A stretch of 64,000 bases of DNA from Deinococcales bacterium (GCA_031414595.1 JANNVX010000067.1:1-64000), one strand, 5' to 3'. Positions 1-64,000 are shown, counted from the first letter of the stretch. Translations and numbers: made by a program. The notes: generated from the letters alone by a model not told the origin.

Positions 1-1
1 T

Positions 2-115
2 ATCTTTGCTGATTTGGATGCTTTGGAAGATATTTTGTGTGACCGTTGTGCTTTTCTGATGCAGAATCCTGAACTGGTTCGTGGTCGGGCTGGTTTTAGC
101 TGGCTCGATGATTAA
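2..115 (+). mobile_element. 3' end of probable IS630-family transposase (truncated by window edge)
   Basis: Frame 2 reads IFADLDALEDILCDRCAFLMQNPELVRGRAGFSWLDD*, resembling the C-terminal helix region of IS630 DDE transposases (F..l..Le..l..rc..l...pe.i....f.W). It is followed by ...AAATTTGGTATGAG (~128-141), which resembles IS630 right ends. Confidence 0.55.
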
Positions 116-183
116 ATACTATCTAAGTAAATTTGGTATGAGATGATATATCCTTAAATCTGGAAATCTTTTTAGGACAGTTC

Positions 184-1704
184 CTAAGCGTAGAACATTG
201 GCGCGGCGGGTTTGATAATTTGTCCCGGTTGCTGCTCAAAAGTCACAGAATTGTGCATGTACTCATCTTTCCAACCAATCTGATCTAAGGCTTTTAACCA
301 ACCACTGTACGATTCATTGTCTTTGACAAGGTAAGCGGCTTTGCCGATGCTTGCGTCGCCTCGAGCAATCACTTGTTCGACCCATGCCCATTTTGCCGAT
401 ACATTTCGTAACTCGAGGTCGCGGCGCAGTTCTTTTTGAATTCGCTTAAAGCGTTTTTCAATCACATCCACCCCAGCAAACGGGTCGGCGTGGTGCGGGG
501 TGTGGCGCTTTGGTACAAAAGGCGAAATCCCCATTGCCACTTTGGTGATGCTCGAGAGTTTTTTACTGAATTCAATTAGCTCGGTGATGTCGTCGTCGTT
601 CTCGGGTGGTAAGCCAATCATCATATAAACCTTGAGGCTCGAGAAGCCCAGTTTTTTAGATAAATGTGCGGTGCGTAATAAATCGGCTTCCGAAATACCT
701 TTTTTCATCCAGTCACGTAAGCGCTGGCTTGGCGCATCCGATGCCACGGTGAAACTGCGTAAGCCACCGTCGCGCAAAATTTGCGCCAGTTCTTCGTCTA
801 CCGTGTCCGCCCGAATACTCGAGACTCCAAGTTTTACGCCGCGTTCGGTTAGGGTGCGCCCGACGTATTTGGTGTGCTTAAAGTCCGATAATGCCGCGCC
901 GACCAAGCCGACTTTTTTGACCCAATCGGGAATGCACGCCAGCAAATCATTGGCTTCGTTGTTGCGGTTTGGTCCGTACATCGTGCGAGCAAGGCAAAAC
1001 GTACACGGACGAGGGCAGCCGCGTTGGGCTTCGACCAAGTACATGTTGCTCAGTTCCGAGTGCGGTGTGACAATTTGGCTGTAAGCAGGGAGCATTTCTT
1101 TGGGGGCAGTTGCCCAAAGCGGTTCGTGTTTCATGCGGTCTGGTAAGTAAATTCCCGGTCTACCTTCAAGGTCAGATAAAAATTCGGCTCGAGATGATGC
1201 TTCGCGCCAAGCCTCGGCAATGATTGGCACAATTAACTCACCGTCGCCAATGCAGATAATATCGGCAAATGGCGCAACGGGGTACGGGTTGCTCGAGGTT
1301 AATGGACCTCCAACAATAATAATTGGGTCAGATTCGTCGCGCTCTTCTCGCCACGGGTTAATTTTGCTCGCCTCGAGAAAACGAATGATGTTGGTTAGGT
1401 CTAGTTCAAAACTGACCGACAACGCCACCATATCGGCTTGTCCGACAGGATTGCCGCTCTCGAGCATCGGCAGTGGTTCGCCAAACTTCTGGAATGCCTC
1501 GAGGTCATCGGGCAGAAAAGCGCGTTCACAAGAAAAGCCTTCTTCTTCGTTAAACATGCGGTAAATCACTTGATAACCAAGGCTCGCCATGCCAACCGAG
1601 TAGCGATTGGGGAAACCAAGGGCAACGCGGGTTGAGGCATGTCGTCGGATTGTACCGATTTCATCATCTAACAGGGGTTTTAAGTGCTTACGCCAATAAC
1701 TCAT
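184..1704 (-). CDS. Radical SAM protein (B12-binding-like N-terminal region)
   Basis: 506 aa ORF with CxxxCxxC (GCPRPCTFC), N-terminal FPNRYSVGMASLG, IGDGE and YMMIGLP motifs. Confidence 0.85.
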   Translation of the reverse strand: MSYWRKHLKPLLDDEIGTIRRHASTRVALGFPNRYSVGMASLGYQVIYRMFNEEEGFSCERAFLPDDLEAFQKFGEPLPMLESGNPVGQADMVALSVSFELDLTNIIRFLEASKINPWREERDESDPIIIVGGPLTSSNPYPVAPFADIICIGDGELIVPIIAEAWREASSRAEFLSDLEGRPGIYLPDRMKHEPLWATAPKEMLPAYSQIVTPHSELSNMYLVEAQRGCPRPCTFCLARTMYGPNRNNEANDLLACIPDWVKKVGLVGAALSDFKHTKYVGRTLTERGVKLGVSSIRADTVDEELAQILRDGGLRSFTVASDAPSQRLRDWMKKGISEADLLRTAHLSKKLGFSSLKVYMMIGLPPENDDDITELIEFSKKLSSITKVAMGISPFVPKRHTPHHADPFAGVDVIEKRFKRIQKELRRDLELRNVSAKWAWVEQVIARGDASIGKAAYLVKDNESYSGWLKALDQIGWKDEYMHNSVTFEQQPGQIIKPAAPMFYA

Positions 1705-1790
1705 TCGTCTCCATATCTAGCCTAAGCACTGTAGCAAACCAAATTGATAATAAACAGCGACAATTGTGCCAATGGGGTAGACTAAAACAT

Positions 1791-2624
1791 ATGGCTGGCA
1801 GAGGCGCAATAGACACAATTTCACTCGAGGCAATGGTTTACCTGCTCGAGTTCTTACCGCAAACCCAAGCGCATTCAGATTGGATTCCGGGTAAGTTACT
1901 GGACTCCAACATGATGCAGCAAATGCAGTCCGAGGCATTCACAGGGTTTGCGGTGTTTGCTTTAGAACAAGAATGGTTGGGTGGGATTCTTTTTTACAAA
2001 GGGCAGGCGCTCGAGGCATGGCGCAGGGCATTGGGTGGCTTAGAAAACCGTGCCGAGGCATACCGCAATCTACTCCCGATGCTTGAATTTGCCTCAGTGC
2101 GTTTTTTTGTGTTGCCTGTTGACCTACTACCGAGTATTTCTGGTTTAACCCTGTCTGAAGCAATAGAAACCTATAACGCTACCGATATTCAAAGTGTGTC
2201 GCTGCTCGAGAAATTAAGCGCCGCCCAGTTTTCTGGGGCGGTACTGCTCGAGAATGGCGCGGTTGCCCAAGCATGGCATTTTTCCAAAGGCATAGCCTTG
2301 CAAAACTTGCCGCTTCCAGAAACATTCAAAGAAGGTAGGCTACATATTTTACATAACCCACTCGAGAAACCCGAGGATGTGGTGCAGTTTGCGGTTATGG
2401 AAGCCGAAAATGAAACAACGGCTCGAGTGCATTTGTTACGAGCCACCCTCGAGAACCAACTGATTGATCATCTTGGAATCAATGCCAAACCGCTTTTAGA
2501 AGCCAATCATGCTTGGTTAGCCCAAAACAACCCAAAGCGCTTGCAAGAAACGATTGAAATTTGGCTCGAGGAGACTTACGGCACGGTGTTCTTGCAACAA
2601 TTTCGAGAGCGCCTCGAAAATTAG
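1791..2624 (+). CDS. Hypothetical protein with two internal PATAN/DUF2226-like repeats
   Basis: Start moved to ATG 1791 (TAGACT -10 box 7 nt upstream; the longer ORF overlaps the divergent gene). Contains FTG...ILFYKG and FSG...WHFSKG repeats; paralogue of the next gene. Confidence 0.7.
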   Translation: MAGRGAIDTISLEAMVYLLEFLPQTQAHSDWIPGKLLDSNMMQQMQSEAFTGFAVFALEQEWLGGILFYKGQALEAWRRALGGLENRAEAYRNLLPMLEFASVRFFVLPVDLLPSISGLTLSEAIETYNATDIQSVSLLEKLSAAQFSGAVLLENGAVAQAWHFSKGIALQNLPLPETFKEGRLHILHNPLEKPEDVVQFAVMEAENETTARVHLLRATLENQLIDHLGINAKPLLEANHAWLAQNNPKRLQETIEIWLEETYGTVFLQQFRERLEN

Positions 2625-2676
2625 ATTGTCATGTTAGACTTTTCTTTAATTTTATGATTCGATTCTCGAGGGTCTT

Positions 2677-3519
2677 TTGAACGCAAATCCGCGTGGCGTG
2701 TTGGACTCTTTTTCGGCTGCCTTGCTTGGGTATTTGTTTGAATTTTTGCCTCAGACCGACCCGCTTTCTGAGTGGGTTCCGGGTAAACTTTTAACCAACG
2801 AATTTGTACTGCGTTTACGTGAATCAGAATTTACCGGTTTTGCCCATGCCAAAATAGGACATGAACTGCGCGGCATCCTGATTTTTTTTAAGGGGCGCTT
2901 ACTCGAGGCTTGGACATATGCACCTTTGGGTTGCGAAGTCGGCATAGATGCCTATTTGCACTTGCTTGAAAAAATAGCCGAAGGCGGTGTGGCACTCTAT
3001 AAACTCCCAACCGATGCCATTCCAGCCGTGCTTGCCTTTACCCTTGGGACGGTGCGCGTGGCTGGGGCAGATGCTAGAATTGTCAGCAGCCAGAATCTAA
3101 TCCGCAATCTCGAGGAGGAACGCTTTAGCGGCACGCTGATTCTCGAGAATGGCAAAATCGGACAAGCGTGGCTGTATCAACGTGGTCAGAACCTGTTCCC
3201 GCCGCCCTTGCCCGAAGAATTCCGCGAGGGCAAACTGCATTTGGTTCATGCCCCGGCTCGAGCGCCCAAAGATTTATTTGAAGCCCTAGCCGAACAAGTG
3301 CGGGCAACTGCCCAAGCCGAACTTGACCGTGTTTGGGCGGCGGCGCTGCTCGTATTAACCAACCAACTTGGACGAGGCGCAAACCAAGCCTTGGACAATC
3401 AGCGCAGCCGAATAAGTTCTGACAATTCTACCGAGGTTTTTGCCTTGCTGCGACGTTTTTTTGAAAGCAACTTTGAACCCGATGCGGTGTTAGATTTTGA
3501 AAAGCACTTAGCCAGATGA
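2677..3519 (+). CDS. Hypothetical protein, tandem paralogue of upstream gene
   Basis: Shares YL.EFLPQT, W.PGKLL, FTGFA, F.KG..LEAW, FSG...LENG...QAW and PLPE.F.EG.LH with 1791..2624. Confidence 0.75.
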   Translation: MNANPRGVLDSFSAALLGYLFEFLPQTDPLSEWVPGKLLTNEFVLRLRESEFTGFAHAKIGHELRGILIFFKGRLLEAWTYAPLGCEVGIDAYLHLLEKIAEGGVALYKLPTDAIPAVLAFTLGTVRVAGADARIVSSQNLIRNLEEERFSGTLILENGKIGQAWLYQRGQNLFPPPLPEEFREGKLHLVHAPARAPKDLFEALAEQVRATAQAELDRVWAAALLVLTNQLGRGANQALDNQRSRISSDNSTEVFALLRRFFESNFEPDAVLDFEKHLAR

Positions 3520-3561
3520 GCGGATTGTACAGTTCTGACATTTGTACGGTAAAGTAATGCC

Positions 3562-4371
3562 ATGAGACGAAACCCAATGCTGTTATCGGTACTGTTTTGC
3601 TTCACATCAGGGTCATTTTCTCAAATTCTCGAGCCGAGTCAGTGGCTACCGATTCCGCTTTCTTCCGACCCCGATTTTGGGGTTATCGAACCGATTAAAC
3701 CACTGCCCAGCAGCAACAGCATTCGACTCGAGTCAAAAAAAGTTTTGGGTGTGTCGGTCAAACTGATTCATGTCAATTTAGAGCATCCGATGGTGCAAGT
3801 TAGCGCGGTGTTACCGACTAATCTATTCAAAAAAGGCGCACACTTTGATACCTTGGTGGCTGGCTCGAGTGCGGTTGCGATGCTCAACGGTGGGTATTTT
3901 CATCCGCAGACTTTTAGTCCTGTAGGCGACTTGGTGGTGGATGGAAAATGGTTAAACCAAGGGCGTTTACGTTCTGGGCTGGCGATTACCAAAGCCAATA
4001 CTGCCCTACTTTGGACAAAAGACAGCCAAATAATTCCACGCGGTTTCAAAACCCTGATTGGTACAGGACCGATTTTGGTTCGAGCCTATCAAATAAACCC
4101 AGTCCCAAAAGCCGAAGGCTACGGCGACAAAGCCATCTGGTCAAAAGCTGCCAGAAGTGCAATCGGTATCTTAGGTGATAAAAAAATTGTACTGGTCAGC
4201 ACTAGAGAACGCCTTTCTTTACGTGAACTAGGTAAAATTATGCACAAACTTGGTTCAAGAGATGCGATTGCCCTAGATGGCGGCTCGAGCGTTGGTATGG
4301 CATGGAAAGGCAAAGTGCTGATTCATCCAAAACGAAAAATTGCGTTTGGGGTTGGGGTCTATATCAAATGA
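3562..4371 (+). CDS. Phosphodiester glycosidase (NAGPA) family secreted protein
   Basis: Signal-like N-terminus; NGGYF, GPILV, ARSAIG and ALDGGSS motifs. Confidence 0.85.
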   Translation: MRRNPMLLSVLFCFTSGSFSQILEPSQWLPIPLSSDPDFGVIEPIKPLPSSNSIRLESKKVLGVSVKLIHVNLEHPMVQVSAVLPTNLFKKGAHFDTLVAGSSAVAMLNGGYFHPQTFSPVGDLVVDGKWLNQGRLRSGLAITKANTALLWTKDSQIIPRGFKTLIGTGPILVRAYQINPVPKAEGYGDKAIWSKAARSAIGILGDKKIVLVSTRERLSLRELGKIMHKLGSRDAIALDGGSSVGMAWKGKVLIHPKRKIAFGVGVYIK

Positions 4372-4438
4372 ATGACTGTTGTGTATATCAAATGAATGAC
4401 TATTGTGTATATCAAATGAATGACTATTGTGTACATCA
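4360..4438. repeat. 24-bp tandem repeat x3 (TATATCAAATGAATGACTRTTGTG)
   Basis: Units at 4360, 4384 and 4408 plus a partial at 4432; the first unit contains the last codons and stop of the upstream gene. Confidence 0.95.
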
Positions 4439-4486
4439 TGTAACTTGACTTTTATAGTATATCCAACGATACTTTTTGTTATCGTT

Positions 4487-5437
4487 ATGAACGCACCTCT
4501 TACCCGTCAGCCCTTAAAAAAAGCCAGCCAGCAAGCACCGCTTGAGCAGTTAAGCATCATTATCCCTTCCTATAACGGAATTGGTGTTTTAGAAAAGTGC
4601 ATGACCATCTTAGAGAAAATCGCCTCTCGAGCCGAAGTGATTGTGGTGGATGGCGGCAGTACCGATGGGAGTTTTGAATTGGTACGCGACCAATATGGGT
4701 GGGCAAAATTACTGGCTGTACCAAATTATGGCTGGGCGCATGCCACCAACCGAGGCTTTGAAATTGCCCATGGAAAATTTTTGGTGACACTCAACTCAGA
4801 TGTGTTCCTCACCCCAGAAGCCCTAGAAGCCATGGTACTGCGTTTACTCGAGAACCCACAGATTGGTGGAGTCCAACCCTATTTACTCAACGGCGACCAG
4901 ACCCGCCAAATGGTTTTTGGTCCACTCTATCCGCCGCACTGGACAAGTATGAAGCAAGCTGTTGATGCACCCGTACTGTCTGGGGCATGTTTAATGACCC
5001 GCCGTGATGTGTTAGAAAAAGTTGGTGGGTTCGATGAAAATTTCTTTTTTTACAACGAAGAATTTGACTGGTGTTGGCGTGCCAGAAAAGCAGGATTCAG
5101 AATGGAACTTCGTCCAGAACGGGTGGTGCATCTCGAAGGGGGTTCAACCCCCAAGCACCCCAATTTTCAACTCGAGGCGCAACGTGGGGCGCTGTATTTG
5201 GTACGAAAACATTTTCATCCGATTATTTTCGAGATTTCCCGCTTTGGGGCGCAGGGATTGTGCTGGATTGCCATGGATTATGACCCGCGCAAAGAATTTC
5301 ATGGGGTTTGGAAAATCATGGAAGTGATTGCTCGAGAACGGCGTTACCTCGAGACCCCTTTTCAATTATCTGGGCGCGGACAGGTACAATTTAAGTTACC
5401 TTCTGAGCCTTTGCCAGAATCGCCTGACCACCAATAA
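4487..5437 (+). CDS. Glycosyltransferase family 2
   Basis: SIIIPSYN, VVDGGSTDGS, LNSD and GGFDENFFFYNEEFDWCWR motifs; likely start ATG 4487. Confidence 0.9.
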   Translation: MNAPLTRQPLKKASQQAPLEQLSIIIPSYNGIGVLEKCMTILEKIASRAEVIVVDGGSTDGSFELVRDQYGWAKLLAVPNYGWAHATNRGFEIAHGKFLVTLNSDVFLTPEALEAMVLRLLENPQIGGVQPYLLNGDQTRQMVFGPLYPPHWTSMKQAVDAPVLSGACLMTRRDVLEKVGGFDENFFFYNEEFDWCWRARKAGFRMELRPERVVHLEGGSTPKHPNFQLEAQRGALYLVRKHFHPIIFEISRFGAQGLCWIAMDYDPRKEFHGVWKIMEVIARERRYLETPFQLSGRGQVQFKLPSEPLPESPDHQ

Positions 5438-15051: not shown

Positions 15052-18000
15052 TTAACCACACTTGCTATAGCCACAGCTTTGGCATTTTAAGCAACCTTCT
15101 TCACGTACCAAATTAGGGCTGCTGCAACTTGGGCATTTTTCGCCTTTCATGGCAACCTGTGCGTGACCCAGTTTGGCTGGCTTGAACAACGAGGCTTGTA
15201 ATTCCTCGGCACTTGGGGCTGCGCCAGAAACGGCTGGATAAGTCTGCATGTCGGTGTACAAAAGTGGCTGCTCGGCTGGACGGACTGCGCCACTCGAGGC
15301 GGTACTCTCGAGTGCCACGGCGATTAAATCGGCTTTGCTGCCGACAAGCCTGCCGTTGTAACTGCCATATAAACCGCCATTAATACCACGAAGCGTTTTT
15401 TGAATCGCTTCGGCTGGAACGCCGTATTGCAGGGCAATAGACACAACCCGTCCGAGGGCTTCGCTGTCGGCGTTGGCTTCGTCGCCAGCCCGTCCGGAAA
15501 CCACGACAATTTCTACGGGTTTGCCCTCTAAAGTATTGGTGGTGATTAAAAAAGTACGTTTTGTACCAGCCGCAAGGTCGGTCAGTTTTACCATGTCGGT
15601 CACACCAGTTAAGCGGGTTGGACGTGAGAAAATCGGTGAACCGGGTTGAAAACTCTGATTTGCCCCCCACAGGGTTTCTTCGATGCTCGAGTTAAGGTTT
15701 GGCTCGAGTGGAATGATGTTACTGGCTTCTTCTTTTTTCTCTTCTTTGCTGGTGCTAAGCACTTGGAATTGTCTCGAGCCGTCGCGGTAGACGGTTATGC
15801 CTTTACAGCCCGTGCGGTAGGCTTCCGAGTAAGCCGCTTCAACATCTTCGACCGTCGCAGAATTAGGTAAGTTAATGGTTTTACTTAAGCTGTTCGCCGC
15901 AAAACCTTCGGTGTCAAAGGCTTGTTGGACTGTACCTTGCATTCGTACATGGTCTAATGGGGCAATGTCATGGGCGCAAATAAAGACGCTCTGGACTGCA
16001 TCGGGTACAAATTCGAGTCCAACACAAGACCCGTGGTTACTGGCTATTGCATCGGTGACTTTATCCCAATCCCAAGCATTATTTTTGGCGTATTTTGCAT
16101 GGGCTGGGTACTGCTCGAGCAGTTCTTGGAATAATGGTGCAGTTAAGGCTTTATATTCCGCTCCAATTTTGCGCCAAATAAACGGACTAAAGACTGGTTC
16201 GATGCCTGATGATACCCCCATCAGCATACTGGTTGTACCAGTTGGCGCAACCGTCAGCACCGCCACATTACGGCGTGGGGCATGGGGAATTTTATCTTTG
16301 TTCTGTTCAAAGACTGGGTACACACCGCGCTCGAGACCTAAGTTTTGGCTTTCGTTGACCGCTTCTTGACGCATCACACTCATGATTTTGTGGATGGTGT
16401 CGCGTCCTTGTTGGTTATCGTAACGCTGATCCATAAGAATCAGTGCGTCGGCGAGTCCCATCACCCCAAGCCCAAGGCGGCGCAGGTTTTGACTGGCAAC
16501 ACGGTTATCTTCTAAAGCAAAGACATTTACCTCGAGAACATCGTCTAAGAAACGAATGCAGTCACGGACATCGGTGCGGAAGGTGGCGTAGTCAAAAGTT
16601 TTGTTCTGCACGTAAGCTGCCAAGTTTATTGCACCTAAATCACAGGGTTCTCCAACTGTCAGAGGAATCTCGCCACAGGGATTGGTGCTTTTAATCTGAT
16701 AACGCTCGCCTAAATTCTTCAAAGCACTTAATTCGTTGACTTTATCAATGTAAATTAAACCCGGTTCACCAGTCGCCCACGCATGTTCGGCAATTTGTCG
16801 CCATAACCACTTGGCTGGAATCCCACCAACATACACAGGTACGCCCTTTGCCCCATCCAATGCTCGAGTTGGTAAAACTGGGATTGTACCGTTGTATTCA
16901 CCCTCAAGCCTGACAATATGGTACTTACCCATCACCTCGAGCGGCGCGATGTTCCACAGCGCATCGGCTTGGAGGGTATTCCAGAATTTCTCGGTTGGTA
17001 GAATCGAGATGTTAAAGGTGGAAATATCACCTTCGCCAGTTTCGCGGTCTAGGTCTTTGGCGGTTAAGAAATCCAGAACGTCTGGATGGTCTATAGAAAT
17101 GGTTGCCATCCCAGCGCCCCTCCTGGTGTTGTGACTGACCATTCCATTAGCAATGTACGTGTGGTTTTCATTGACGCTTAAATCCAAGGTGAGGATACGC
17201 CCTGCTTCTGTCACGCTCGAGACTTCTACATAACATTCTTCGGTATTGATGGCGGGAAGCATTTCTTCAAGCTGCTGCGTTTGGGTCAGCGCAGCATAAC
17301 CACTGATGGTTAATTGGCGTTCACCACGCATGTAGCGCGATAAGGTTTTGCGATTTTGAGTGTGAGGACTTGGGTGTCCTTTGCTGCCTTTTGGCAATTG
17401 ATTAAAAGTTTCTTCAAGTAAGCCTTGTGCGTGAGGTAATACCCATGCCGATTCACGGCTCTTGTCGGGTGTAAAGTCGTTCATGGCGGCGAATCTCGAG
17501 CCGTTTGCCCAGCCAATGCGTTCTTTGTAACGTTCAAAACCAATGTGTGAGGTGACTCGAATACGAGCGTATGGTTTACTCGAGTAACGGTCTTCTCGAG
17601 CCGCATAATCCGAAACTTGACTTGGAATGCCTAATCCAGCCAGCAACACTGCCAAATCTTCGACAAATTTTCTCGAGACGCTGCTTAGTTCTGGGTAATG
17701 ATGACTGAGCGTCCCATCAGCTTCAAAAACACCGTGTAAGAATGCGCCTAGAATATGCCGTGGTGCTTGGCGAATCGCCCGTGGAACTTCCAAGTTTTCA
17801 GCTTTAGGTTTGAGTAGATTATTCTTTTCGAGCCACATAGTTAGGGCTGCGCTTTTGACCACAAACACAACGCTTTTATCGTTTTCCTTTTGTTGAATAC
17901 CGACATCTAAACCAAAGAGAGCTTGGAACATCTCTGGGACTCTTTTTTCCATGATGCTGCCATGAGCCGCACACATGCCAACACGTCCGCCAGTGCTGAT

Positions 18001-19353
18001 AAAACCATCGCCCCATAAGTAACCAAGCCAAAAAGCCAAATCTTCGGTCAGGGTTTCGGGGGTTTGTATCCGAGTGGCATTGAAATGTAGGTCTGCTTCC
18101 TCGAGAGGTTGCAGTTGGACACTGCTGCCTGTGTGTTGGTCAAGGCTTTGAATCACGTGATCGCCTTGCTTAAGTTCAGATAATTTGACCCATTCTCTTG
18201 TTCCGTCCGAACGCATCACTTTGAGTTTGTGGTTTGGTGTACCTTGAATAAATAAGCCGTTCTCGAGTGCTACTTTTAAGGTGTTGGCAACGCCGTTGTT
18301 AAAGGTTTCTGGGCTGTGTTTCCAACCTTCGTCAGTGGCAACTTCGAGGGCATGGTGTTGCCAACCTGTGATGTATGGGTCTACCAGTTCGGACAAACGC
18401 AATGTGCCTTTGCTGGTGTGAACCAGTGTATCTGGGTGTAAACAACCGCCCTGCCTCACAACCCTCAACACTGGCGCATAACAATACCTGAGTGTCGCCA
18501 CTGGACCAGATTGCTCTGCCCCTAAATTTGCCCACTCGAGGAAATTATCAAAAATCTCAAATAAGAACGACACGGGTCCACTGGATGTACCGCCAGACCC
18601 TTTAATCGGTGCGCCTTCTTCGCGCAGTCCAGACAAATCTATGCGTGGTTCATTGCCAGCCTTGGCAGTGGCACAGACCATTTTGGCTGCCTCGAGAATC
18701 CCGCCCATGTCGTCGTGAATGGCATTGACATTATCAGGCAGACTGCCGACTAAATTTACCCCGTATTGCCGTGCGAGACTCGAGAGTGTTGGCGAGACAA
18801 CTCCGTAGACCACTTTGCTCCAGTTACGGATACTGGTCGGTTGTTTTTCACCGTCGGGCATGGTTGGTGGGCGCATTAAACCTTTGATAAAATCTTCAAC
18901 ATCGGGGTGGGTGGCGCTCATGTATGCCCAACCGCGTACACCGTTATCTGAGCGGCTGGTGCTTGCCCTTGGGGTATAGACATCTAAGTTCACGCCGTTG
19001 CCACCGCCGACTTTGGTGACGAGAGCCAGTTTTTTGGCGACTTCCATGACCCCAAGAAAGCTGCTTGGCTCAAATTCGGTTGCACCTTGGACAAAGCAGT
19101 TCAGGACATTGCCGTGCTGCGTTCCAGCCCCAGCTAGAACCCGTCCACCGGGGCAGAAGCGTTTACTTGCCATCAGGTCATAAAAAGTTGCACCCCATTT
19201 GGCTTTTAATTCGGGGGTGCTTTCGGCACTCGAGACCCAACTGGCAATGCGCTGGAACATGCCAAAAACGTCAGTATCAGACGGCTGCATGTATTGGCGT
19301 TTGGCAATACTTTGGGCGTGGTCGTCGAAGTGGTAAGTGGTATTTTGGGTCAT
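15052..19353 (-). CDS. nrdJ: Adenosylcobalamin-dependent (class II) ribonucleotide reductase with intein
   Basis: NCFV, TNPCGE, EPCDLGAINL, RRLGLGVMGLAD, APTGT, SKTIN and GCKGITVYRDGS motifs; C-terminal TSCPD-like domain and CxxC...CxxC; GGAGG RBS before ATG 19353. Confidence 0.95.
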   Translation of the reverse strand: MTQNTTYHFDDHAQSIAKRQYMQPSDTDVFGMFQRIASWVSSAESTPELKAKWGATFYDLMASKRFCPGGRVLAGAGTQHGNVLNCFVQGATEFEPSSFLGVMEVAKKLALVTKVGGGNGVNLDVYTPRASTSRSDNGVRGWAYMSATHPDVEDFIKGLMRPPTMPDGEKQPTSIRNWSKVVYGVVSPTLSSLARQYGVNLVGSLPDNVNAIHDDMGGILEAAKMVCATAKAGNEPRIDLSGLREEGAPIKGSGGTSSGPVSFLFEIFDNFLEWANLGAEQSGPVATLRYCYAPVLRVVRQGGCLHPDTLVHTSKGTLRLSELVDPYITGWQHHALEVATDEGWKHSPETFNNGVANTLKVALENGLFIQGTPNHKLKVMRSDGTREWVKLSELKQGDHVIQSLDQHTGSSVQLQPLEEADLHFNATRIQTPETLTEDLAFWLGYLWGDGFISTGGRVGMCAAHGSIMEKRVPEMFQALFGLDVGIQQKENDKSVVFVVKSAALTMWLEKNNLLKPKAENLEVPRAIRQAPRHILGAFLHGVFEADGTLSHHYPELSSVSRKFVEDLAVLLAGLGIPSQVSDYAAREDRYSSKPYARIRVTSHIGFERYKERIGWANGSRFAAMNDFTPDKSRESAWVLPHAQGLLEETFNQLPKGSKGHPSPHTQNRKTLSRYMRGERQLTISGYAALTQTQQLEEMLPAINTEECYVEVSSVTEAGRILTLDLSVNENHTYIANGMVSHNTRRGAGMATISIDHPDVLDFLTAKDLDRETGEGDISTFNISILPTEKFWNTLQADALWNIAPLEVMGKYHIVRLEGEYNGTIPVLPTRALDGAKGVPVYVGGIPAKWLWRQIAEHAWATGEPGLIYIDKVNELSALKNLGERYQIKSTNPCGEIPLTVGEPCDLGAINLAAYVQNKTFDYATFRTDVRDCIRFLDDVLEVNVFALEDNRVASQNLRRLGLGVMGLADALILMDQRYDNQQGRDTIHKIMSVMRQEAVNESQNLGLERGVYPVFEQNKDKIPHAPRRNVAVLTVAPTGTTSMLMGVSSGIEPVFSPFIWRKIGAEYKALTAPLFQELLEQYPAHAKYAKNNAWDWDKVTDAIASNHGSCVGLEFVPDAVQSVFICAHDIAPLDHVRMQGTVQQAFDTEGFAANSLSKTINLPNSATVEDVEAAYSEAYRTGCKGITVYRDGSRQFQVLSTSKEEKKEEASNIIPLEPNLNSSIEETLWGANQSFQPGSPIFSRPTRLTGVTDMVKLTDLAAGTKRTFLITTNTLEGKPVEIVVVSGRAGDEANADSEALGRVVSIALQYGVPAEAIQKTLRGINGGLYGSYNGRLVGSKADLIAVALESTASSGAVRPAEQPLLYTDMQTYPAVSGAAPSAEELQASLFKPAKLGHAQVAMKGEKCPSCSSPNLVREEGCLKCQSCGYSKCG
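17128..18444 (-). mobile_element. Intein (439 aa) with LAGLIDADG homing endonuclease
   Basis: Inserted in RQGG|TRRGA; begins CLHPDT, has block B TPNH, two LAGLIDADG-like motifs (LGYLWGDG, LHGVFEADG), ends VSHN, +1 residue Thr. Confidence 0.95.
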
Positions 19354-23763: not shown

Positions 23764-24441
23764 ATGGACAGAAAACCATTGGTGCTGGTCGTTGAAGACG
23801 AAAAAGACATTGCCCGTTTTATAGAACTCGAGCTTGCCGCCGAGGGCTACCAAACCGAAGTGGCATTTGATGGTGTGACCGGACTTAGTAAGTTCCGTGA
23901 AGTCAACCCAGACTTACTGATTCTTGATTTAATGCTGCCCGTCTTAGACGGTCTCGAGGTCGCCCGCCGAGTGCGGAAAACCAGTAATACCCCGATTATT
24001 ATTTTGACCGCTAAAGACAGCATTTCCGATAAAGTCGAGGGCTTAGACGCTGGGGCAGACGATTACTTAATTAAACCCTTTAGCATCGAAGAACTTCTGG
24101 CTCGAGTCAGGGCGCATTTGCGGCGGGTCAATCCGGCTGTAACGGGCGAAGTGCGGGTCGCAGATTTGGTCATGAACCTAGACGGGCGCGAGGTTTTTCG
24201 TGGTGGTCGGCGGGTCGAGTTATCAGCCAAAGAATTTGAACTGCTCGAGTTACTAGCCCGTAACCCCGGTAAAGTCTTTAGCCGTTTTGAAATCGAAGAA
24301 AAAGTCTGGCCCGAATACACTGGTGGCAGCAATGTTGTGGATGTCTACATTGGCTACTTGCGCCGTAAGCTCGAGGAATCTGGTGAACGCCGTTTGATTC
24401 ACACCGTCCGTGGTGTTGGTTATGTGCTGCGCGAGGAATAA
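23764..24441 (+). CDS. OmpR-family response regulator
   Basis: [33 protein letters not shown] and HTVRGVGY motifs. Confidence 0.97.
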
Positions 24442-24484
24442 GAGCTAGGGTTAAAGGGTAAAAAGTAGAAAGCGACCCAGCCCG

Positions 24485-24526
24485 TGAGCGCGAATAGCCC
24501 GTTAGGTGCTGTTTTATGAGCAAGAA
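24485..24526 (+). repeat. Dispersed 42-bp repeat (copy 1)
   Basis: TGAGCGCGAATAGCCCGTTAGGTGCTGTTTTATGAGCAAGAA is 38/42 identical to the reverse complement of 59580..59621. Confidence 0.85.
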
Positions 24527-24645
24527 GGTGCATCTTTAGCGACCCAAGCCCGAAGGTGCTGTAGTTGTGGTCAAGAAGGGTCAAGAAGGGTGAAAGTAAA
24601 AACCTTTAACCTTTTTACCTTTTCGCCTTTTCTACTGGGGTTTTT

Positions 24646-26112: not shown

Positions 26113-26119
26113 CGTCTTG

Positions 26120-26146
26120 GTGGGCAAGGCATGCCTCACCCTTTAC
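26120..26146. repeat. Degenerate REP-like palindrome between convergent genes
   Basis: GGGCAAGGCA|TGCCTCACCC imperfect palindrome followed by TTTAC, resembling GTAG-type REPs. Confidence 0.4.
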
Positions 26147-26196
26147 AACCAATGATCTGGCTATTCCCAATTAGAAGAGTAAGTTTAGATGAATCT

Positions 26197-28068: not shown

Positions 28069-28081
28069 AAGGTACTCCTCA

Positions 28082-36577: not shown

Positions 36578-36578
36578 G

Positions 36579-37730: not shown

Positions 37731-37837
37731 AAACTACAATACGCGATTTTCGTCAAAAAGTTGCAAATGGCACAATTGACCAAAACTTGCCTTAAATTAC
37801 CCTGCCAAAAGTCATACAATAAGCATAAACTAGGCAA

Positions 37838-39834
<1,997 letters not shown>

Positions 39835-41055: not shown

Positions 41056-41156
41056 AAAAATAGTCTACTGCCTGTTTCTCGAGAAGCATGAAAAAAACTT
41101 GTACTCAGTTCAGAAAATCGGTTATCCTGCTGCCCTTACACACAAGGAGGCAGGAC

Positions 41157-42197
41157 ATGCAGAAACGACTGGTTGGGGTGGCGCTGGCAGCAGCTTTTGG
41201 CACAATGGTGTACGCGCAAGGTGGTTTTGCGGGTTGGCGCGAAATCAGTATTGCTGGTTTAGTCTGTTCCGATGGTAGCCCGTGGAAGTTCTATGCCACG
41301 AGGGGCGACACGCAAAAAGTCGTGGTGGATTTTCAGGGCGGCGGCGCATGTTGGGATTCGGTCAGTTGCGACCCAAAAAATGGCTTGTACAACCGTACCC
41401 TAAACAAAGGCGACCTTGATTACGCCCAAGGAATTTATAACAAAGGTAGCAATGCCAATCCATTCAAAGGCTGGTCACATGTGTTTGTTCCGTACTGCAC
41501 AGGAGATTTGCACTGGGGCAACAGTGAACAAAAATACACCAGTGGAACAATTCAGCATAAAGGCGCAGCCAACGCCCAAGCCGCCCTCGAGTACACTTAT
41601 AAAAACTTTCCTTTTGCCCAGAATGTTTTTGTGACTGGTTGCAGTGCTGGCAGTTACGGCGCAGCCATGTGGACACCGCACATCATGAAACACTACAACA
41701 AGGCTCGAGTGGCGCTGTTGGGTGACAGTGGCTTAGGAATTACCAGCCAAGGGTTTTCGGACATTGCAACCAAGGCTTGGAATCCGTCTGGCGCAATCCC
41801 AGATTTTATTCCAGAACTGGCAGCCCTGAAGTCTGACCCAAGTAAACTCCGGGTTGAAGCAATTTATAAAGCAGTTGCTAAAGCGTTTCCCAATAATAGT
41901 TTCGCCCAGTTTACGGCGAATACCGATAATGTCCAGATTTTCTTCCATGCGCTTGCCCTTGGTTTAGCTCAACCGACCCAAGCCTCGGCAACCCAATGGG
42001 TTCAGCAAGCCTTTGGCAGTCTGCTCGGGATTAAGGCAGTCACCCCAAATTATGCCAATTATGTTGCCCCTGGCGGCTCGCACTGCATTATTGGCAGCCC
42101 GAATTTTTACACCACCAAAGTTGGCGATAAACCACTGGTCAACTGGGTTAAGGAATTGATTAGCACCACACCAGCCGATGTGATTGCTCGTCCATAA
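41157..42197 (+). CDS. Pectinacetylesterase-family secreted hydrolase
   Basis: CSDGSP, FQGGGACW, VPYCTGDLHWG, GCSAG and HC motifs; AGGAGG RBS. Confidence 0.9.
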   Translation: MQKRLVGVALAAAFGTMVYAQGGFAGWREISIAGLVCSDGSPWKFYATRGDTQKVVVDFQGGGACWDSVSCDPKNGLYNRTLNKGDLDYAQGIYNKGSNANPFKGWSHVFVPYCTGDLHWGNSEQKYTSGTIQHKGAANAQAALEYTYKNFPFAQNVFVTGCSAGSYGAAMWTPHIMKHYNKARVALLGDSGLGITSQGFSDIATKAWNPSGAIPDFIPELAALKSDPSKLRVEAIYKAVAKAFPNNSFAQFTANTDNVQIFFHALALGLAQPTQASATQWVQQAFGSLLGIKAVTPNYANYVAPGGSHCIIGSPNFYTTKVGDKPLVNWVKELISTTPADVIARP

Positions 42198-42230
42198 GCA
42201 CGAATTCTCGAGTTGTGGCATTCTATTAAA

Positions 42231-42656
42231 ATGAATGCCATAACTTTTTTAATACCACTGACTTTTCTGATTGTTTTTTCTGTCATGTGGATGGGCGTGA
42301 TTTGGTTTATCTCGAGGTTTGGCTGGTTTGGTTTGGCATCCTATTGGCGCACCACAGATACGCCCACGGGAATGCTGTACTCGAGTGCGTCGGGTCGTAT
42401 CGGCGCTCGGTACAACCACGTGCTAAAAATTTGGTTAGATGATAAGGGCTTATTTCTCGAGACTATTTGGTTATTTCGCCTTGGGCATGAACGCCTTCTG
42501 ATTCCGTGGGAGGATGTACTGGACATGAAACCGACACGGATTTTATGGCAAACTGGGGTTCGGCTCGAGTTGAAAAATGATAAGTCTTTTGTGCTTTATG
42601 GGGCAGTCAGTGTAGCGCTGCTCGAGTTGTGGACTCAAAAACCAGCTTTAGAATAA
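42231..42656 (+). CDS. Hypothetical membrane protein
   Basis: N-terminal TM; GW..LA..Y and H..L.IPW pattern. Confidence 0.7.
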   Translation: MNAITFLIPLTFLIVFSVMWMGVIWFISRFGWFGLASYWRTTDTPTGMLYSSASGRIGARYNHVLKIWLDDKGLFLETIWLFRLGHERLLIPWEDVLDMKPTRILWQTGVRLELKNDKSFVLYGAVSVALLELWTQKPALE

Positions 42657-42663
42657 ATACTAC

Positions 42664-42683
42664 ATATTGACAATCATCAATAT
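42664..42683. promoter_or_regulatory. ArsR-type operator 1
   Basis: ATATTGA-N6-TCAATAT inverted repeat overlapping a TTGACA -35 upstream of arsR. Confidence 0.75.
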
Positions 42684-42701
42684 ATAATGTACACTCGAGC
42701 C

Positions 42702-43034
42702 ATGTCTGGGCTGATGCAACTCGAGCCAACAATGTCAGAAGCCCCTTTGGGTCTCGAGGGTATGGCATGGATTTTCAAAGCCCTTTCCGACCCTGCACGG
42801 CTTAAAATAATTATGTATTTGGCTTCGGATGCGGTTGGTTGTTGTGGCGATGGCATTTGTGGCTGTGATTTAGAGTCGGTGACAGGGCTTTCTCAACCGA
42901 CGATTAGCCATCATATGAAGTGCTTGGCTTCGGCTGGTTTGGTTGTGGCACAAAAACGCGGTAAATGGATGTATTACAGTTTGGACACTCGAGTTTTTGC
43001 GGCGGCTGGGGCTTATTTGACCCAGTGTTGCTAA
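42702..43034 (+). CDS. arsR: ArsR/SmtB-family repressor
   Basis: FKALSDPARL, CCGDGICGCDL, SQPTISHH and RGKWMYY motifs; terminal CC. Confidence 0.9.
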   Translation: MSGLMQLEPTMSEAPLGLEGMAWIFKALSDPARLKIIMYLASDAVGCCGDGICGCDLESVTGLSQPTISHHMKCLASAGLVVAQKRGKWMYYSLDTRVFAAAGAYLTQCC

Positions 43035-43048
43035 AAATTAGGTCAAAC

Positions 43049-43068
43049 ATATTGAAATGTATCAATGT
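43049..43068. promoter_or_regulatory. ArsR-type operator 2
   Basis: ATATTGA-N6-TCAATGT, a near-identical copy of the 42664 site, downstream of arsR. Confidence 0.7.
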
Positions 43069-43080
43069 AAGGAGAAATGT

Positions 43081-43260
43081 ATGAACATTAACGAAATTCT
43101 AAATCACCAAGAACAAATTCGGCATGACGTTCGGATTGCCCATCTCGAGGAGTACACCCTTCTCGAGTGGTGGCAGGGCTTATGGCACAAAACCAGTGTC
43201 AAAATCCCCAAACCCCTCGCCCTAACCAGCGCCGAAGCTGCTTGCGCCTACACATGTTAA
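43081..43260 (+). CDS. Small hypothetical protein (59 aa, C-terminal CxxxC)
   Basis: AAGGAG RBS before ATG 43081; fills the gap to the next RBS. Confidence 0.6.
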   Translation: MNINEILNHQEQIRHDVRIAHLEEYTLLEWWQGLWHKTSVKIPKPLALTSAEAACAYTC

Positions 43261-43274
43261 AAGGAGAATCATAT

Positions 43275-43775
43275 ATGTCAAACTTAGAAACGTTTTTAAT
43301 CAATCTCGAGCCGCACCTTGAACACCCGATGGTCTTTGACCTTGGTAATGGGCAGCATGTGCCAGTTGGCTATCATGTCACCGAATTCAAAGCCCTCGAG
43401 TATCACACCGTAGATTGTGGTGGTATGGAACACAAATTCCAAGAAACCGTGATTGAACTCTGGCGCACTGCCCTCGAGCTAGACCGTGATTTTATGAGCG
43501 TTGGCAAGTTCTTAAGTATTTATAAAAAAGTCAGTCCTAAAGTTAATTTTGCTACCCAAGCCGAACTGATTTTCTTGTATGGCGCTCAAGGACAACCAGC
43601 CGCACGCTACGCGGTTGCTAAACTCGAGCCTAAGAATGGTCAATTGATTGTACATCTCGAGCCAGACGGCGTGCGTTGCAAAAGTGCAGACCGCAAAGCT
43701 GATGCGATACTGGATGGTTTACCCATAATTTCTGGATGTTGTACTCCAGTCAATTCGAGTAAGGTTTGTTGCTGA
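43275..43775 (+). CDS. DUF6428-like protein (ars-operon associated)
   Basis: YHVTEFK, VDCGG and ET.IELW motifs; Cys-rich tail GCC...CC; AAGGAG RBS. Confidence 0.75.
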   Translation: MSNLETFLINLEPHLEHPMVFDLGNGQHVPVGYHVTEFKALEYHTVDCGGMEHKFQETVIELWRTALELDRDFMSVGKFLSIYKKVSPKVNFATQAELIFLYGAQGQPAARYAVAKLEPKNGQLIVHLEPDGVRCKSADRKADAILDGLPIISGCCTPVNSSKVCC

Positions 43776-44677
43776 TGTTACGCCAAGCTACCCTCAGCGA
43801 CCTCGAGCTTCTAAAAGCTCATTTAAGCCAAGCTAAACTTGTTTTACAAAGCATCGAAGAACATTTAGAACATTTCTGGCTTTTATTTGATGGGGATGAC
43901 CTAATCGCTTCGGCTGGTCTCGAGATTTATGGCGGCGTGGCGTTGCTTCGTTCGGTTGCTGTTAATGCTCATTGGCAGAATCAGGGTTTGGGTCAGCAAA
44001 TCCTACAAAAAATTCTCGAGTATGCCTCGAGCTTGGGCATACGAGAACTGGTACTGCTGACCGAAACAGCACCAAGTTACTTTGAGCGTTACGGTTTTAG
44101 GAAAATCGCTCGAGAACACGCCCCACAAGCCGTCAAAGCATCAACCGAATTTAAGGGTGCGTGTTCGGATAGTGCAATTGTTATGCGCCGCTTTCTGGTT
44201 CACATCCGTACTGCCGAGCCAAAAGACGCTTTACAAATTACCCAGATTTATAACCAAGGCATCGAAGACCGAATCGCTACTTTTGAAAGCGAAGCTCGTT
44301 TGGAACAAGATATTCTCGAGTGGTTCAATCCAAACTATCCGTTTTTAGTGGCTGAACGTGACGGTCTGGTACTTGGTTTTATTCGCGCCTCGAGTTACCG
44401 CAGCCGAGCAAGTTATGCTCAAATTGCCGAGTACAGTGTTTATGTGGCTCGAGAAGCCCAAGGACAACGAATTGGTGATGCGCTGATGACCACTTTTATT
44501 CCAATTCTAAAAGAAAAAGGGTTTTCTAAGGTTCTCTCGAGAATCTTTCCGGAGAATACTGCTTCTTTGGCACTTTGCGCTAAACATGGCTTTAGAGTCG
44601 TTGGTGTCTATCAAAAACATGCCCAGCTAGACGGCGTTTGGCGTGATTGTGTAATCGTTGAACGGTTGCTCGTGTAG
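43775..44677 (+). CDS. Tandem GNAT fusion: ArsN2-like + ArsN1/phosphinothricin-acetyltransferase-like
   Basis: N-half has GLEIYG..ALLRSVAV...LLTETA..YF...CS.SA; C-half has IYNQGIEDRIATFE...EYSVYV...IFPENTAS...WRDCVIVERLL. Confidence 0.85.
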   Translation: MLRQATLSDLELLKAHLSQAKLVLQSIEEHLEHFWLLFDGDDLIASAGLEIYGGVALLRSVAVNAHWQNQGLGQQILQKILEYASSLGIRELVLLTETAPSYFERYGFRKIAREHAPQAVKASTEFKGACSDSAIVMRRFLVHIRTAEPKDALQITQIYNQGIEDRIATFESEARLEQDILEWFNPNYPFLVAERDGLVLGFIRASSYRSRASYAQIAEYSVYVAREAQGQRIGDALMTTFIPILKEKGFSKVLSRIFPENTASLALCAKHGFRVVGVYQKHAQLDGVWRDCVIVERLLV

Positions 44678-62543: not shown

Positions 62544-62561
62544 TTGTCGTATACTAAATCC

Positions 62562-62849
62562 ATGCTTGCATACAAAGCGATGTTCAAATTTTTAGAAAAT
62601 CAAATCCATGCCGAGGTGTTGGATTTTCCAGGGGTAGTTACTTGTGCTGTAACTCTGACAGAAGCTCGGCGTTTACTCAGCAGTGCTTTGGTAGATATGG
62701 CAGATATTGCTTTACAGCAAGGCGAAGCGTTGCCATTGCCTAATCCTTTGTTGACGGACTTTGAAGCAGACCTTGAAGAACCAATTTACTTACTTCTCGA
62801 GTCAGCTTCTGTGGTCACACACAGCGCAACGGTGTATGAAACGGCGTGA
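62562..62849 (+). CDS. hicB: HicB-family antitoxin
   Basis: AEVLDFPGVVT...EAR..L..AL...GEALP.P pattern. Confidence 0.85.
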   Translation: MLAYKAMFKFLENQIHAEVLDFPGVVTCAVTLTEARRLLSSALVDMADIALQQGEALPLPNPLLTDFEADLEEPIYLLLESASVVTHSATVYETA

Positions 62850-63024
62850 TTTACTGCTGCATTTGGCGGCGGCTGGTTGTGAATTACTGCGTGAAGGCTC
62901 AGAGCATTCTATTTGGTGGAGTCCAAGCACGAAGATGCGGACAAGTATTCCTCGTCATCGTGAAATCAATGACTTCACCGCCGCAAAAATTTGTTTACAA
63001 CTGGGAATTGAAATTCTAAAGTAA
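62836..63024 (+). CDS. hicA: HicA-family toxin
   Basis: MKRRDLL..L...GC.LLREGSEH, IPRHREI and IC.QLGI motifs. Confidence 0.88.
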   Translation: MKRRDLLLHLAAAGCELLREGSEHSIWWSPSTKMRTSIPRHREINDFTAAKICLQLGIEILK

Positions 63025-63025
63025 A

Positions 63026-64000
63026 TCAAACTCGAATAAGCTCGGAATTCTTCGCCACATCCCTAGCACTGCGCCGCCCAAACTGATGTGCCAAATCTCG
63101 TTCCGAGAGTTTTAGTGCCGTTGGTCTGCCATGCGGACACGCCCACGGCACACGACAAGCCCGCAAGGTCTCGAGCAGTGCCGTTGCATCGGCTTTCTCG
63201 AGTTTATGCCCAGCTTTAATGGCAGGCAAGCACGCCATTCGCGCCAGAAAATCGCGCCGAGCATCGGGGGCATTTAAGGCTCGGGATAGCACATCCACCA
63301 CCGTCTCGAGACGAATGCCAATAAAGGCACTGGGAATACTGGCGATGCGGTGCAGTCCGCCGCCGAAGTTCTCGAAGGTAAAACCCCAAGTGATGAGTTC
63401 TTGGCGTTTGGTCTCGAGAGACAGTTCCATGTCGGGCGGCAGGGTCAGCAATTCTGGTTTGGGTAACTCGAGGGTATGGGCGGTTTCAAAACTGTTTTCG
63501 AGTTCTTCAAAAATAATTCGTTCATGGGCAGCGTGTTGGTCGAGTAACCATAAATCGCCGTCGGTACTCTCGGCAAGTAAATAAGTATCGCGGTATGTGC
63601 CAATCAAACGCAATTCTGGGAAACTTGAACGAATGGCTTGTGGAGCTTGAACAATCCGAGGTTCTGGTACACTTGGCGCAAGCGGTTGGGCGTTTAGCAC
63701 TTGGGCAATTGCCGCTTCTACAACTTTTTCGACCTGTTTAGCCTCGAGCAGTGCCACCCGTAATTTGCCCGGATGGGCATTCTGATTGACCAATTCTGGC
63801 GGCACAACAATGTTTAAGACCATACTCGGGGCGTGGTTTTTTGGCAGCAAGGTACTGAAGGCTTTAAGCACCGCATTCTCGATATTGGTCTCGAGTTCAA
63901 CAGGACGGTTGTTAATCGCTACGTGCATTCGGTCGGTGCGTGGACGTGCCAATTCTGGACGGGTAATCACCCCAGAAACCTGCACATTGTCTTGTTCAAA
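63026..64000 (-). CDS. mutL: DNA mismatch repair protein MutL (C-terminal part; 5' end outside window)
   Basis: DQHAAHERIIFE, AC..AIKAG and CPHGRP motifs. Confidence 0.95.
   Translation of the reverse strand, partial: FEQDNVQVSGVITRPELARPRTDRMHVAINNRPVELETNIENAVLKAFSTLLPKNHAPSMVLNIVVPPELVNQNAHPGKLRVALLEAKQVEKVVEAAIAQVLNAQPLAPSVPEPRIVQAPQAIRSSFPELRLIGTYRDTYLLAESTDGDLWLLDQHAAHERIIFEELENSFETAHTLELPKPELLTLPPDMELSLETKRQELITWGFTFENFGGGLHRIASIPSAFIGIRLETVVDVLSRALNAPDARRDFLARMACLPAIKAGHKLEKADATALLETLRACRVPWACPHGRPTALKLSERDLAHQFGRRSARDVAKNSELIRV

Follow-up and report, generated by a model that had tools for sequence, protein, structure and literature searches.

The 64,000-nucleotide stretch of DNA analyzed here in full (the window) comes from a bacterium of the order Deinococcales (GCA_031414595.1, contig JANNVX010000067.1, positions 1 to 64,000), and it is crowded from end to end with a single six-base word, CTCGAG. 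By its abundance and dispersal, CTCGAG qualifies as a true highly iterated palindrome (HIP), a bare six-base word. We suggest, with a probability that we put at roughly 40%, that it is kept in one Deinococcales family by a site-autonomous drive operating at the level of the DNA, through biased mismatch correction or gene conversion. CTCGAG arises and is retained through effects on the DNA itself across the entire chromosome, whatever the reading frame, strand or gene boundary on which it falls. It is missing from recently acquired islands, and hence the process takes time to act on new DNA.

Abundance and dispersal of CTCGAG

The window (positions 1..64000, unstranded) carries 333 CTCGAG sites, or 5.2 per kb, located within genes on both strands as well as between genes. 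In contrast, 100 dinucleotide-preserving shuffles of the window yielded only 7.65 ± 2.9 sites (maximum 15), and none of them reached 333. The original prediction was based on a count by eye of about 30 sites in the first 5 kb and claimed that the high density continues across the window; an exact recount of positions 1..5000 gave 30 sites, and each 8-kb bin contains between 36 and 46. The window is contig C67 of a draft genome (G000; 4,488,778 bp in 120 contigs, 47.2% GC) with 23,235 CTCGAG sites, one per 193 bp, so that 3.1% of all bases are covered by the word. CTCGAG leads all other hexamers of this genome threefold (46,470 occurrences counted on both strands; the runner-up has 14,786 and the median hexamer 1,820), and it exceeds the mononucleotide expectation 24-fold and that of a first-order Markov model 43-fold. 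A fourth-order Markov model gives an observed/expected (O/E) ratio of only 1.16, a value that is uninformative because about 90% of the CTCGA pentamers already sit within CTCGAG. The word likewise contains 69% of the TCGA tetramers of the genome. The related words CCCGGG and CYCGRG show no enrichment, and the unit is therefore the exact hexamer. A general mutational process that generates palindromes can be ruled out, since other palindromic hexamers occur in G000 at or below expectation.

Several of these other palindromes are strongly avoided. There are only 152 copies of GGCC in 4.49 Mb (0.01 of expectation), GATC stands at 0.14 of expectation, and the hexamers GGCGCC (3 copies), TGCGCA (2), GTGCAC (6), GAGCTC (6) and CGATCG (3) are nearly absent, while many hexamers have fewer than 30 copies each. 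This avoidance is in keeping with the many and variable restriction-modification genes of the organism.

The simplest account of these numbers would be that they have trivial causes: Leu-Glu codon pairs, a relic of a high-GC ancestor, copies of a repeat, or an assembly artefact. We considered 3,587 non-overlapping long open reading frames (ORFs), delimited by a simple longest-ORF rule and covering 86% of G000, and found a CTCGAG density of 5.15 per kb within ORFs versus 5.33 per kb in non-ORF DNA. The Leu-Glu frame (CTC-GAG; 11,850 sites) does account for 59% of the ORF sites, as a codon-pair explanation would have it; the remaining sites lie in the frames xCT-CGA-Gxx (3,885) and xxC-TCG-AGx (4,176). 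When synonymous codons were shuffled with the protein sequences and the per-gene codon usage preserved, 1,272, 383 and 257 sites were expected in the three frames, corresponding to O/E ratios of 9.3, 10.1 and 16.3. This test is conservative because CTCGAG itself inflates the use of these codons. Outside of the motif, CTC makes up just 7.9% of the Leu codons and GAG 20% of the Glu codons; nevertheless, CTCGAG encodes 60% of the Leu-Glu pairs. The enrichment is thus neither confined to the Leu-Glu frame nor absent from intergenic DNA, and the 10- to 16-fold excess in the other two frames, together with the equal density in non-ORF DNA, makes codon usage a very poor explanation. The occurrence of the word in different reading frames, in an intein and in intergenic DNA, as originally described, is fully borne out. 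The LAGLIDADG intein (17128..18309, minus strand) interrupts a ribonucleotide reductase gene (ORF 15052-19395) and holds seven sites (at 17216, 17495, 17579, 17595, 17672, 18100 and 18262), about 5.9 per kb; this genome-typical density marks it as an old resident.

The enrichment reaches into the proteome. Leu-Glu dipeptides number 19,758 versus the 8,866 expected from amino-acid frequencies (2.2-fold), while the reverse dipeptide Glu-Leu (8,723) is at expectation; CTCGAG has therefore altered proteins, and not codons alone. Hence, the process is strong enough both to change synonymous codons and to substitute one amino acid for another, with about 11,000 extra Leu-Glu dipeptides as the result. 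A profile aligned on the genes of G000 is flat from 300 bp upstream of the starts through the gene bodies. A small increase is seen at stop codons (6.8 sites per kb in the last 50 bp and 6.3 in the next 50 bp, versus about 5.1).

CTCGAG is not part of a longer repeat element, because its flanks are uninformative (at most 0.03 bits per position in G000) and its contexts unique: 23,081 of 23,229 sites lie in a unique 20-mer context, and the most repeated context occurs 27 times. The conserved flanks and multi-copy contexts of dispersed repeats of the repetitive extragenic palindrome or miniature inverted-repeat type were not found at these 23,229 sites. The 8-bp palindromic extensions of the word are all somewhat under-represented, with CCTCGAGG (178 loci) about fourfold below the expectation for independent flanks. 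The gaps between sites in G000 are close to exponential (coefficient of variation 0.99) and the spacing is near-Poisson; gaps shorter than 50 bp and those of 200-800 bp are slightly too few, and gaps longer than 1 kb are too many. A search for periodicity revealed the 3-bp codon period only, and neither a helical period of 10-11 bp nor a longer one. Sites at a distance of 6 are absent because the avoided GAGCTC would arise at their junction. Pairs at a distance of 7, with one base between the two sites (CTCGAGNCTCGAG), number 101, versus 17-49 at distances of 8 to 14.

Windows of 4 kb contain 20.8 ± 5.6 sites, with a Poisson standard deviation of 4.6. Only eight HIP-poor islands (at most 5 sites per 4 kb) exist in G000, all of lower GC content. 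Annotation of four of these islands showed one to hold a gene cluster for surface polysaccharides, another an RHS toxin tip, and a third a DDE transposase next to a large, defence-like gene with sacsin and NOV_C domains; the ORFs of the fourth, on contig C88, have no Pfam match. The lack of CTCGAG from recently acquired islands indicates that the motif accumulates with the time of residence. At one locus (L213, G000:C14:31001-41000), the gene of a 2,374-residue RHS-repeat protein, which has a PT-HINT domain, precedes small ORFs of low GC content that contain no CTCGAG; this arrangement looks like a swapped toxin tip with its immunity genes.

Distribution, conservation and gain of sites in the Deinococcales

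The Dxs protein encoded in the window is 94% identical to sequences from two metagenome-assembled genomes (MAGs) labelled Deinococcales bacterium, followed by Deinococcus (65-67%) and Meiothermus and Truepera (about 60%). The matches place the organism in the Deinococcota. Across 151 genomes of the order Deinococcales, all 19 genomes of the window's family (uncultured Deinococcales of about 47% GC, five genera, one single-contig genome included) carry 4.3-6.8 CTCGAG per kb. Other lineages in the families f5, f4 and f2 reach 2-3.4 per kb, the Thermus-like genus g9 is at about 0.6-1.1 per kb, and all 36 genomes of the Deinococcus-like family f3 have only 0.01-0.27 per kb. CTCGAG is the top hexamer, with an excess off-frame and outside of ORFs, in sampled DNA of G067, G116, G019, G126 and a Trueperaceae-labelled contig of 48% GC. 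In a sample of the Thermus-like G016, its count is accounted for by codon usage (O/E 0.7), and in a 40-kb sample of the Deinococcus-like G014 it is depleted (O/E 0.3 after codon shuffling). The enrichment therefore varies by degrees within the order and reaches its extreme in the window's family, where it is older than the split of the five genera. This comparison, together with the spread over all frames and the equal non-ORF density, upholds the proposal that the lineage possesses a HIP of its own. The Thermus-like result would fit a trivial origin of the word, which we nevertheless regard as hardly credible: 19 independent assemblies, the single-contig one among them, share the enrichment. 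Among the viral loci listed (at least 126), no phage of the HIP family was found, and the dense ones were of high GC content. In the dense viral records, the reversed control word GAGCTC was similarly common, or CTCGAG formed merely a local cluster, and the densest viral locus had no phage match.

Orthologous loci were fetched from the family genomes, first with the 20-kb stretch at positions 24000..43999. In whole-window alignments with these genomes, 57-82% of the CTCGAG positions are shared, versus 15-33% for any hexamer, even though DNA identity within the genus is only 77-80%. In the genus comparison, an aligned counterpart exists for 144 of 188 sites of the window (77%), versus 28% for any hexamer; with two other genera, it exists for 54 of 94 (57%), versus 15%. 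Overall, the positions of the sites are conserved 2.5- to 4-fold more than the background. Divergence drops to 0.03-0.13 across exactly the six motif positions, versus 0.09-0.34 in the flanks. The codons CTC, GAG, TCG and CGA agree between genomes at a frequency of 0.80-0.86 within CTCGAG and of 0.22-0.38 elsewhere, a contrast of codon identity inside and outside of the motif that, according to the accessible text of Xu et al. 2018 (PMC5861425), has served as a control for the cyanobacterial palindrome HIP1. At the same time, each genome has lineage-specific sites; the genus comparison contains 73 that are present in the relative only.

How sites are gained can be followed in the dxs gene (26197..28068, minus strand), which carries nine CTCGAG and has acquired such sites both by synonymous recoding and by amino-acid replacement. 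In a codon alignment of eight family and nine outgroup sequences, at least one family member carries a site in 22 columns, of which 14 are free of sites in all nine outgroup sequences. The sites are therefore mostly gains and not relics of a high-GC ancestor, although the remaining eight columns, with a site in some outgroup sequence as well, are what such a relic would leave behind. Among the changes are LS, LP, LR and LA to LE, FNS or FDS to FSS, and a double switch of codon family in which Ser AGC became TCG simultaneously with a change of Arg CGN to AGR. In non-ORF DNA, 3,345 sites stand against 1,828 loci that differ from CTCGAG at one position, a ratio of one-off loci to sites of 0.55 instead of the approximately 18.5 given by base composition, corresponding to a shift of about 34-fold. 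The one-off variants are mostly transitions. Among them, the C-to-T type accounts for 444 loci at positions 1/6 and for 456 at positions 3/4 in non-ORF DNA; since both cytosines are about equally affected, there is no sign of a hotspot of 5-methylcytosine deamination. From the lineage-specific sites, the constrained synonymous positions within the motif and the shifted equilibrium between sites and one-off loci, we infer that the process continues to be active in each lineage.

The conserved positions and the exact 6-bp footprint are also what weak selection on each site would produce, for instance if CTCGAG were bound by an abundant protein of the chromosome involved in nucleoid organization, or if it were a Chi-like self mark by which resident DNA escapes a nuclease. 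The opposite extremes in sister families (4.3-6.8 per kb versus 0.01-0.27 per kb in 36 of 36 genomes) would then suggest that CTCGAG is read throughout the order, and the slight deficit of gaps of 200-800 bp points in the same direction. It is, however, demanding to invoke effective selection on 23,000 sites that are individually almost worthless. Furthermore, the spacing is neither regular nor helical, the density is equal in every genomic context, and the explanation comes without a candidate protein. In our view, it is improbable.

The proposed drive and candidate readers of CTCGAG

We favor a drive in which a putative CTCGAG-reading factor would bias mismatch correction or gene conversion towards the perfect hexamer. 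Perfect sites would thereby be shielded from mutational loss, and near-sites would be fixed into CTCGAG, each locus independently of the others. Such biased correction or conversion is rated as the most likely form of the drive; it would not saturate, and under it sites are expected to be independent of one another and distributed in a Poisson-like manner. A bolder version of this idea, which we consider doubtful, is that the entire order possesses a CTCGAG-reading activity other than a methyltransferase; it would represent a new sequence-directed repair or recombination drive that ran away in one family, with the word purged more than tenfold in Deinococcus. If this were true, an order-wide drive would have written a hexamer into 3% of the bases of a genome and forced about 11,000 changes at the amino-acid level. 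The formation of HIPs would then be separable from DNA methylation, and a second, independent and partly culturable system would be at hand for the 30-year-old HIP problem.

Alternatively, the reader could be an orphan methylase that marks CTCGAG or the inner TCGA, with methylation-dependent mismatch repair or recombination raising the number of sites, as in Elhai's model for HIP1; such a ratchet is a special case of the proposed drive. In cyanobacteria, an alternate HIP comes with a methylase of matching specificity, according to the accessible part of Elhai 2015 (PMC4390886), and the lack of a 5-methylcytosine hotspot is compatible with N6-methyladenine or N4-methylcytosine. Five Pfam families of methyltransferases (PF01555, PF00145, PF07669, PF02086 and PF02384) were searched across the HIP family. 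G000 alone has nine matches each to PF07669 and PF01555 and five to PF00145, and the specificity of its many methyltransferases cannot be read from their sequences. No ortholog group spans the HIP family in this search of five Pfam families among mostly MAGs, in which PF01555 and PF02086 were clustered; a methylase of a novel family might still be present. PF01555 and PF07669 are missing in G002 (82% complete), and PF00145 in G010 (91% complete). The PF01555 genes that were fetched cluster into groups of two to four genomes. PF02086 is present in 18 of the 19 family genomes but falls into at least four ortholog groups (clusters of two to five genomes when combined with PF01555), one of which lies beside a gene of the MutH/Sau3AI family and another beside an EcoRV nuclease gene; the PF02384 matches are heterogeneous. 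The clustered genes form a patchwork of the restriction-modification type, with several groups next to nuclease genes. At one such locus in G000 (L165, G000:C1:20000-34000), a D12 adenine methylase (ORF 6905-7876) is followed by a MutH/Sau3AI-family gene (ORF 7861-8484). The two probably form a restriction-modification pair for GATC, in agreement with the depletion of this word.

G000 has two adenine methylases of the TaqI_C type, on contigs C89 (559 amino acids) and C4 (663 amino acids). The C89 enzyme is related to CamA and to the ATCGAT methylase M.BseCI; it was rejected as maintainer of the word because it was found in only two of the 13 family genomes searched. The locus of the C4 enzyme has 7.5 CTCGAG per kb, which makes this methylase a long-term resident; the protein was set aside as a member of a widespread family with uninformative names. 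Neither enzyme gave a clue to its specificity in tblastn searches of plasmids.

A full-length homolog of M.TaqI is encoded amid housekeeping genes in the complete, HIP-positive genome G019 (L199, G019:C1:29000-41000; ORF 4944-6287, minus strand), between an aminotransferase and a release-factor gene; it matches a solved structure with an E value of 1e-126, and no nuclease family was detected beside it. Its orthologs are present in all 22 Thermus-like genomes, which have no HIP, in none of the 19 genomes of the HIP family, and in 24 of the 151 genomes of the order. An M.TaqI-type reader is thus rejected, its occurrence being anti-correlated with CTCGAG enrichment. A D12 methylase likewise adjoins a release-factor gene in G033, the single-contig genome of the HIP family.

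Pairs of an XhoI-family nuclease (PF04555) and a PF01555 methylase were found in family f4, at L219 (G015:C1:73699-77256), L216, L217, L220 and L221. Their hosts show no avoidance of CTCGAG (0.7-1.8 per kb), and the copy in G025 is interrupted by stop codons. The partner methylases share 70-79% identity with one another and have no close homolog in the family set, where the best full-length match reaches 23-30% identity. An XhoI system as the cause of the CTCGAG depletion in the Deinococcus-like family f3 was likewise rejected, with the nuclease present in none of its 36 genomes. The orphan CTCGAG/TCGA methylase that had been suggested in the original prediction is therefore not supported; a methyltransferase of the XhoI, PaeR7I or TaqI type was not found in the HIP family. 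In addition, the near-Poisson spacing misfits selection for a regularly placed methyl mark. Taken together, we consider a methylase-driven ratchet to be improbable, on a par with per-site selection. The putative reader would be neither a TaqI-type nor an XhoI-system methylase, and methylation may be uninvolved altogether, since no methyltransferase common to the family was found.

A different kind of drive would result from the preferential uptake or integration of CTCGAG-rich DNA from conspecifics, followed by homologous recombination. Uptake sequences occur genome-wide and in all reading frames, affect peptides, are common to related species and are absent from new islands, and CTCGAG would match them by analogy in each of these respects. 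The transformation genes ComEC and DprA are present in G000; they carry little weight because they are near-universal (matched in 10-11 of 14 control genomes). The Thermus-like genomes show no enrichment, and DNA uptake by Thermus is reportedly sequence-independent. On the other hand, a 6-mer discriminates poorly between self and non-self, 5 sites per kb is about five times the density of known uptake sequences, and such a drive should saturate once every DNA fragment carries a site. As far as the accessible text of two recent reports goes, HIP1 has itself been tied to transformation (10.1101/2024.09.10.611283; PMC13756078). We regard an uptake signal as unlikely, if somewhat less so than the methylase ratchet or per-site selection.

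Several points nonetheless weigh against a repair-type drive. Biased repair is deduced purely from patterns in the sequence, and these would be equally expected under an uptake bias or under weak per-site selection. Transition-type one-off variants are not depleted in G000 (1.07-1.23 of the mononucleotide expectation); the decay of some of the very numerous sites could account for this, but it is not an outright prediction of the drive. There are 2,396 gaps longer than 400 bp versus 2,755 under an exponential distribution, and with the slight deficit at 200-800 bp this is a weak hint of evenness. Very-short-patch repair by Vsr of Escherichia coli produces a far weaker enrichment than the one seen here. 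G000 has no match to Vsr (PF03852) in a search whose control was positive in three known genomes, and no NucS above the family cut-off, while the XhoI-family nuclease occurs in none of the 19 HIP-family and none of the 36 f3 genomes, and in six of 151 order-wide. The genomes of the HIP family are mostly incomplete MAGs (57-94% complete), and absences from them are soft; the contrast of ORF and non-ORF DNA depends on the simple longest-ORF rule.

G000 possesses MutL, and the C-terminal part of a mutL gene that extends beyond the window lies at 63026..64000 (minus strand). Mismatch repair belongs to the proposed mechanism, and MutL is thus a candidate participant only. Short intergenic repeat units of about 40 nucleotides (core start GCGACCCAGCCCG) are present at 24446-24633 and approximately 34842-34912, with dozens of matches in each family genome searched. 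An inverted repeat of 20 nucleotides, imperfect and located at 24453-24472 / 24604-24623, flanks these units, which lack CTCGAG and match nothing in Rfam. Scans of the 64-kb window with Rfam and for tRNAs returned nothing.

Relation to known systems

Systems that read the same word or its core are the XhoI/PaeR7I (CTCGAG) and TaqI (TCGA) systems. They occur in the order (in six and 24 of 151 genomes, respectively) but in none of the 19 genomes of the HIP family. Restriction normally leads to the avoidance of a site, whereas CTCGAG is found here in 25- to 40-fold excess.

To our knowledge, the sole well-understood precedent for the proposed biased correction is Vsr, which in E. coli acts with Dcm (CCWGG) in a sequence-specific mismatch correction that biases the genome towards a palindromic word. 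The effect on CTCGAG exceeds the one in E. coli by one to two orders of magnitude. In contrast to the E. coli system, no Vsr was found in G000, the C5 methylases (PF00145) are not universal in the HIP family, and all six positions of CTCGAG are affected, not just a cytosine prone to deamination.

The uptake sequences of Neisseria (DNA uptake sequences) and of the Pasteurellaceae (uptake signal sequences) resemble CTCGAG as over-represented short words that occur in all frames and are shared among relatives, and they are thought to accumulate by molecular drive rather than through a function of each site. They are non-palindromic 9- to 12-mers that occur about once per kb and have a demonstrated uptake bias, with the receptor known in Neisseria. 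CTCGAG differs as a palindromic 6-mer present about five times per kb that is known here from sequence alone, in an organism with the competence genes ComEC and DprA.

The closest likeness is with HIP1. Both are short, GC-rich, hyper-abundant palindromes that are dispersed over coding and non-coding DNA with no link to particular genes, and both affect codons and peptides. CTCGAG is a dispersed bare word in excess under composition, Markov and codon models, and its positions are conserved between genomes beyond the conservation of codons, as in the test described in the accessible text of Xu et al. 2018 (PMC5861425). The word is nevertheless not HIP1: HIP1 proper is GCGATCGC with CGATCG and GATC as its cores, whereas G000 has three copies of CGATCG, and GATC at 0.14 of expectation. 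The HIP described here belongs to the Deinococcota, has six bases instead of eight, and occurs once per 150-230 bp, as opposed to at most about once per 350 nucleotides for HIP1 (PMC5861425, as far as accessible). HIP1 has a quasi-periodic spacing according to the same portion of Xu et al. 2018; such spacing was not found for CTCGAG, with its 3-bp codon period and near-exponential gaps. HIP1 is accompanied by DmtA and DmtC, as stated in the accessible part of PMC13756078, and no conserved cognate orphan methylase was found for CTCGAG.

Full-text literature searches, which covered sources other than subscription journals, REBASE and supplements, returned no prior description of a CTCGAG HIP in the Deinococcota. 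High abundance of HIP1 has not been seen outside of the cyanobacteria according to the accessible text of Xu et al. 2018 (PMC5861425), and the corresponding part of Elhai 2015 (PMC4390886) does not mention CTCGAG. The function of HIPs is debated, with methylation-linked repair, genome structure and DNA uptake all under discussion, and with an independent, denser HIP that has no detectable conserved methylase, the essential features can be singled out by comparison. The reshaping of proteins by CTCGAG is a clean example of a DNA-level process that overrides weak protein constraint. On the practical side, the density of the word is a sharp marker for binning genomes of this family and for spotting recently acquired DNA. 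Experiments would become feasible if the milder HIP lineages represented by G067, G116 and G019 (Thermaceae-like, families f5 and f4; sampled genomes 99% complete) turned out to be in culture. CTCGAG is thus a second and independent case of a phenomenon so far described only in cyanobacteria, in another phylum and with another word.

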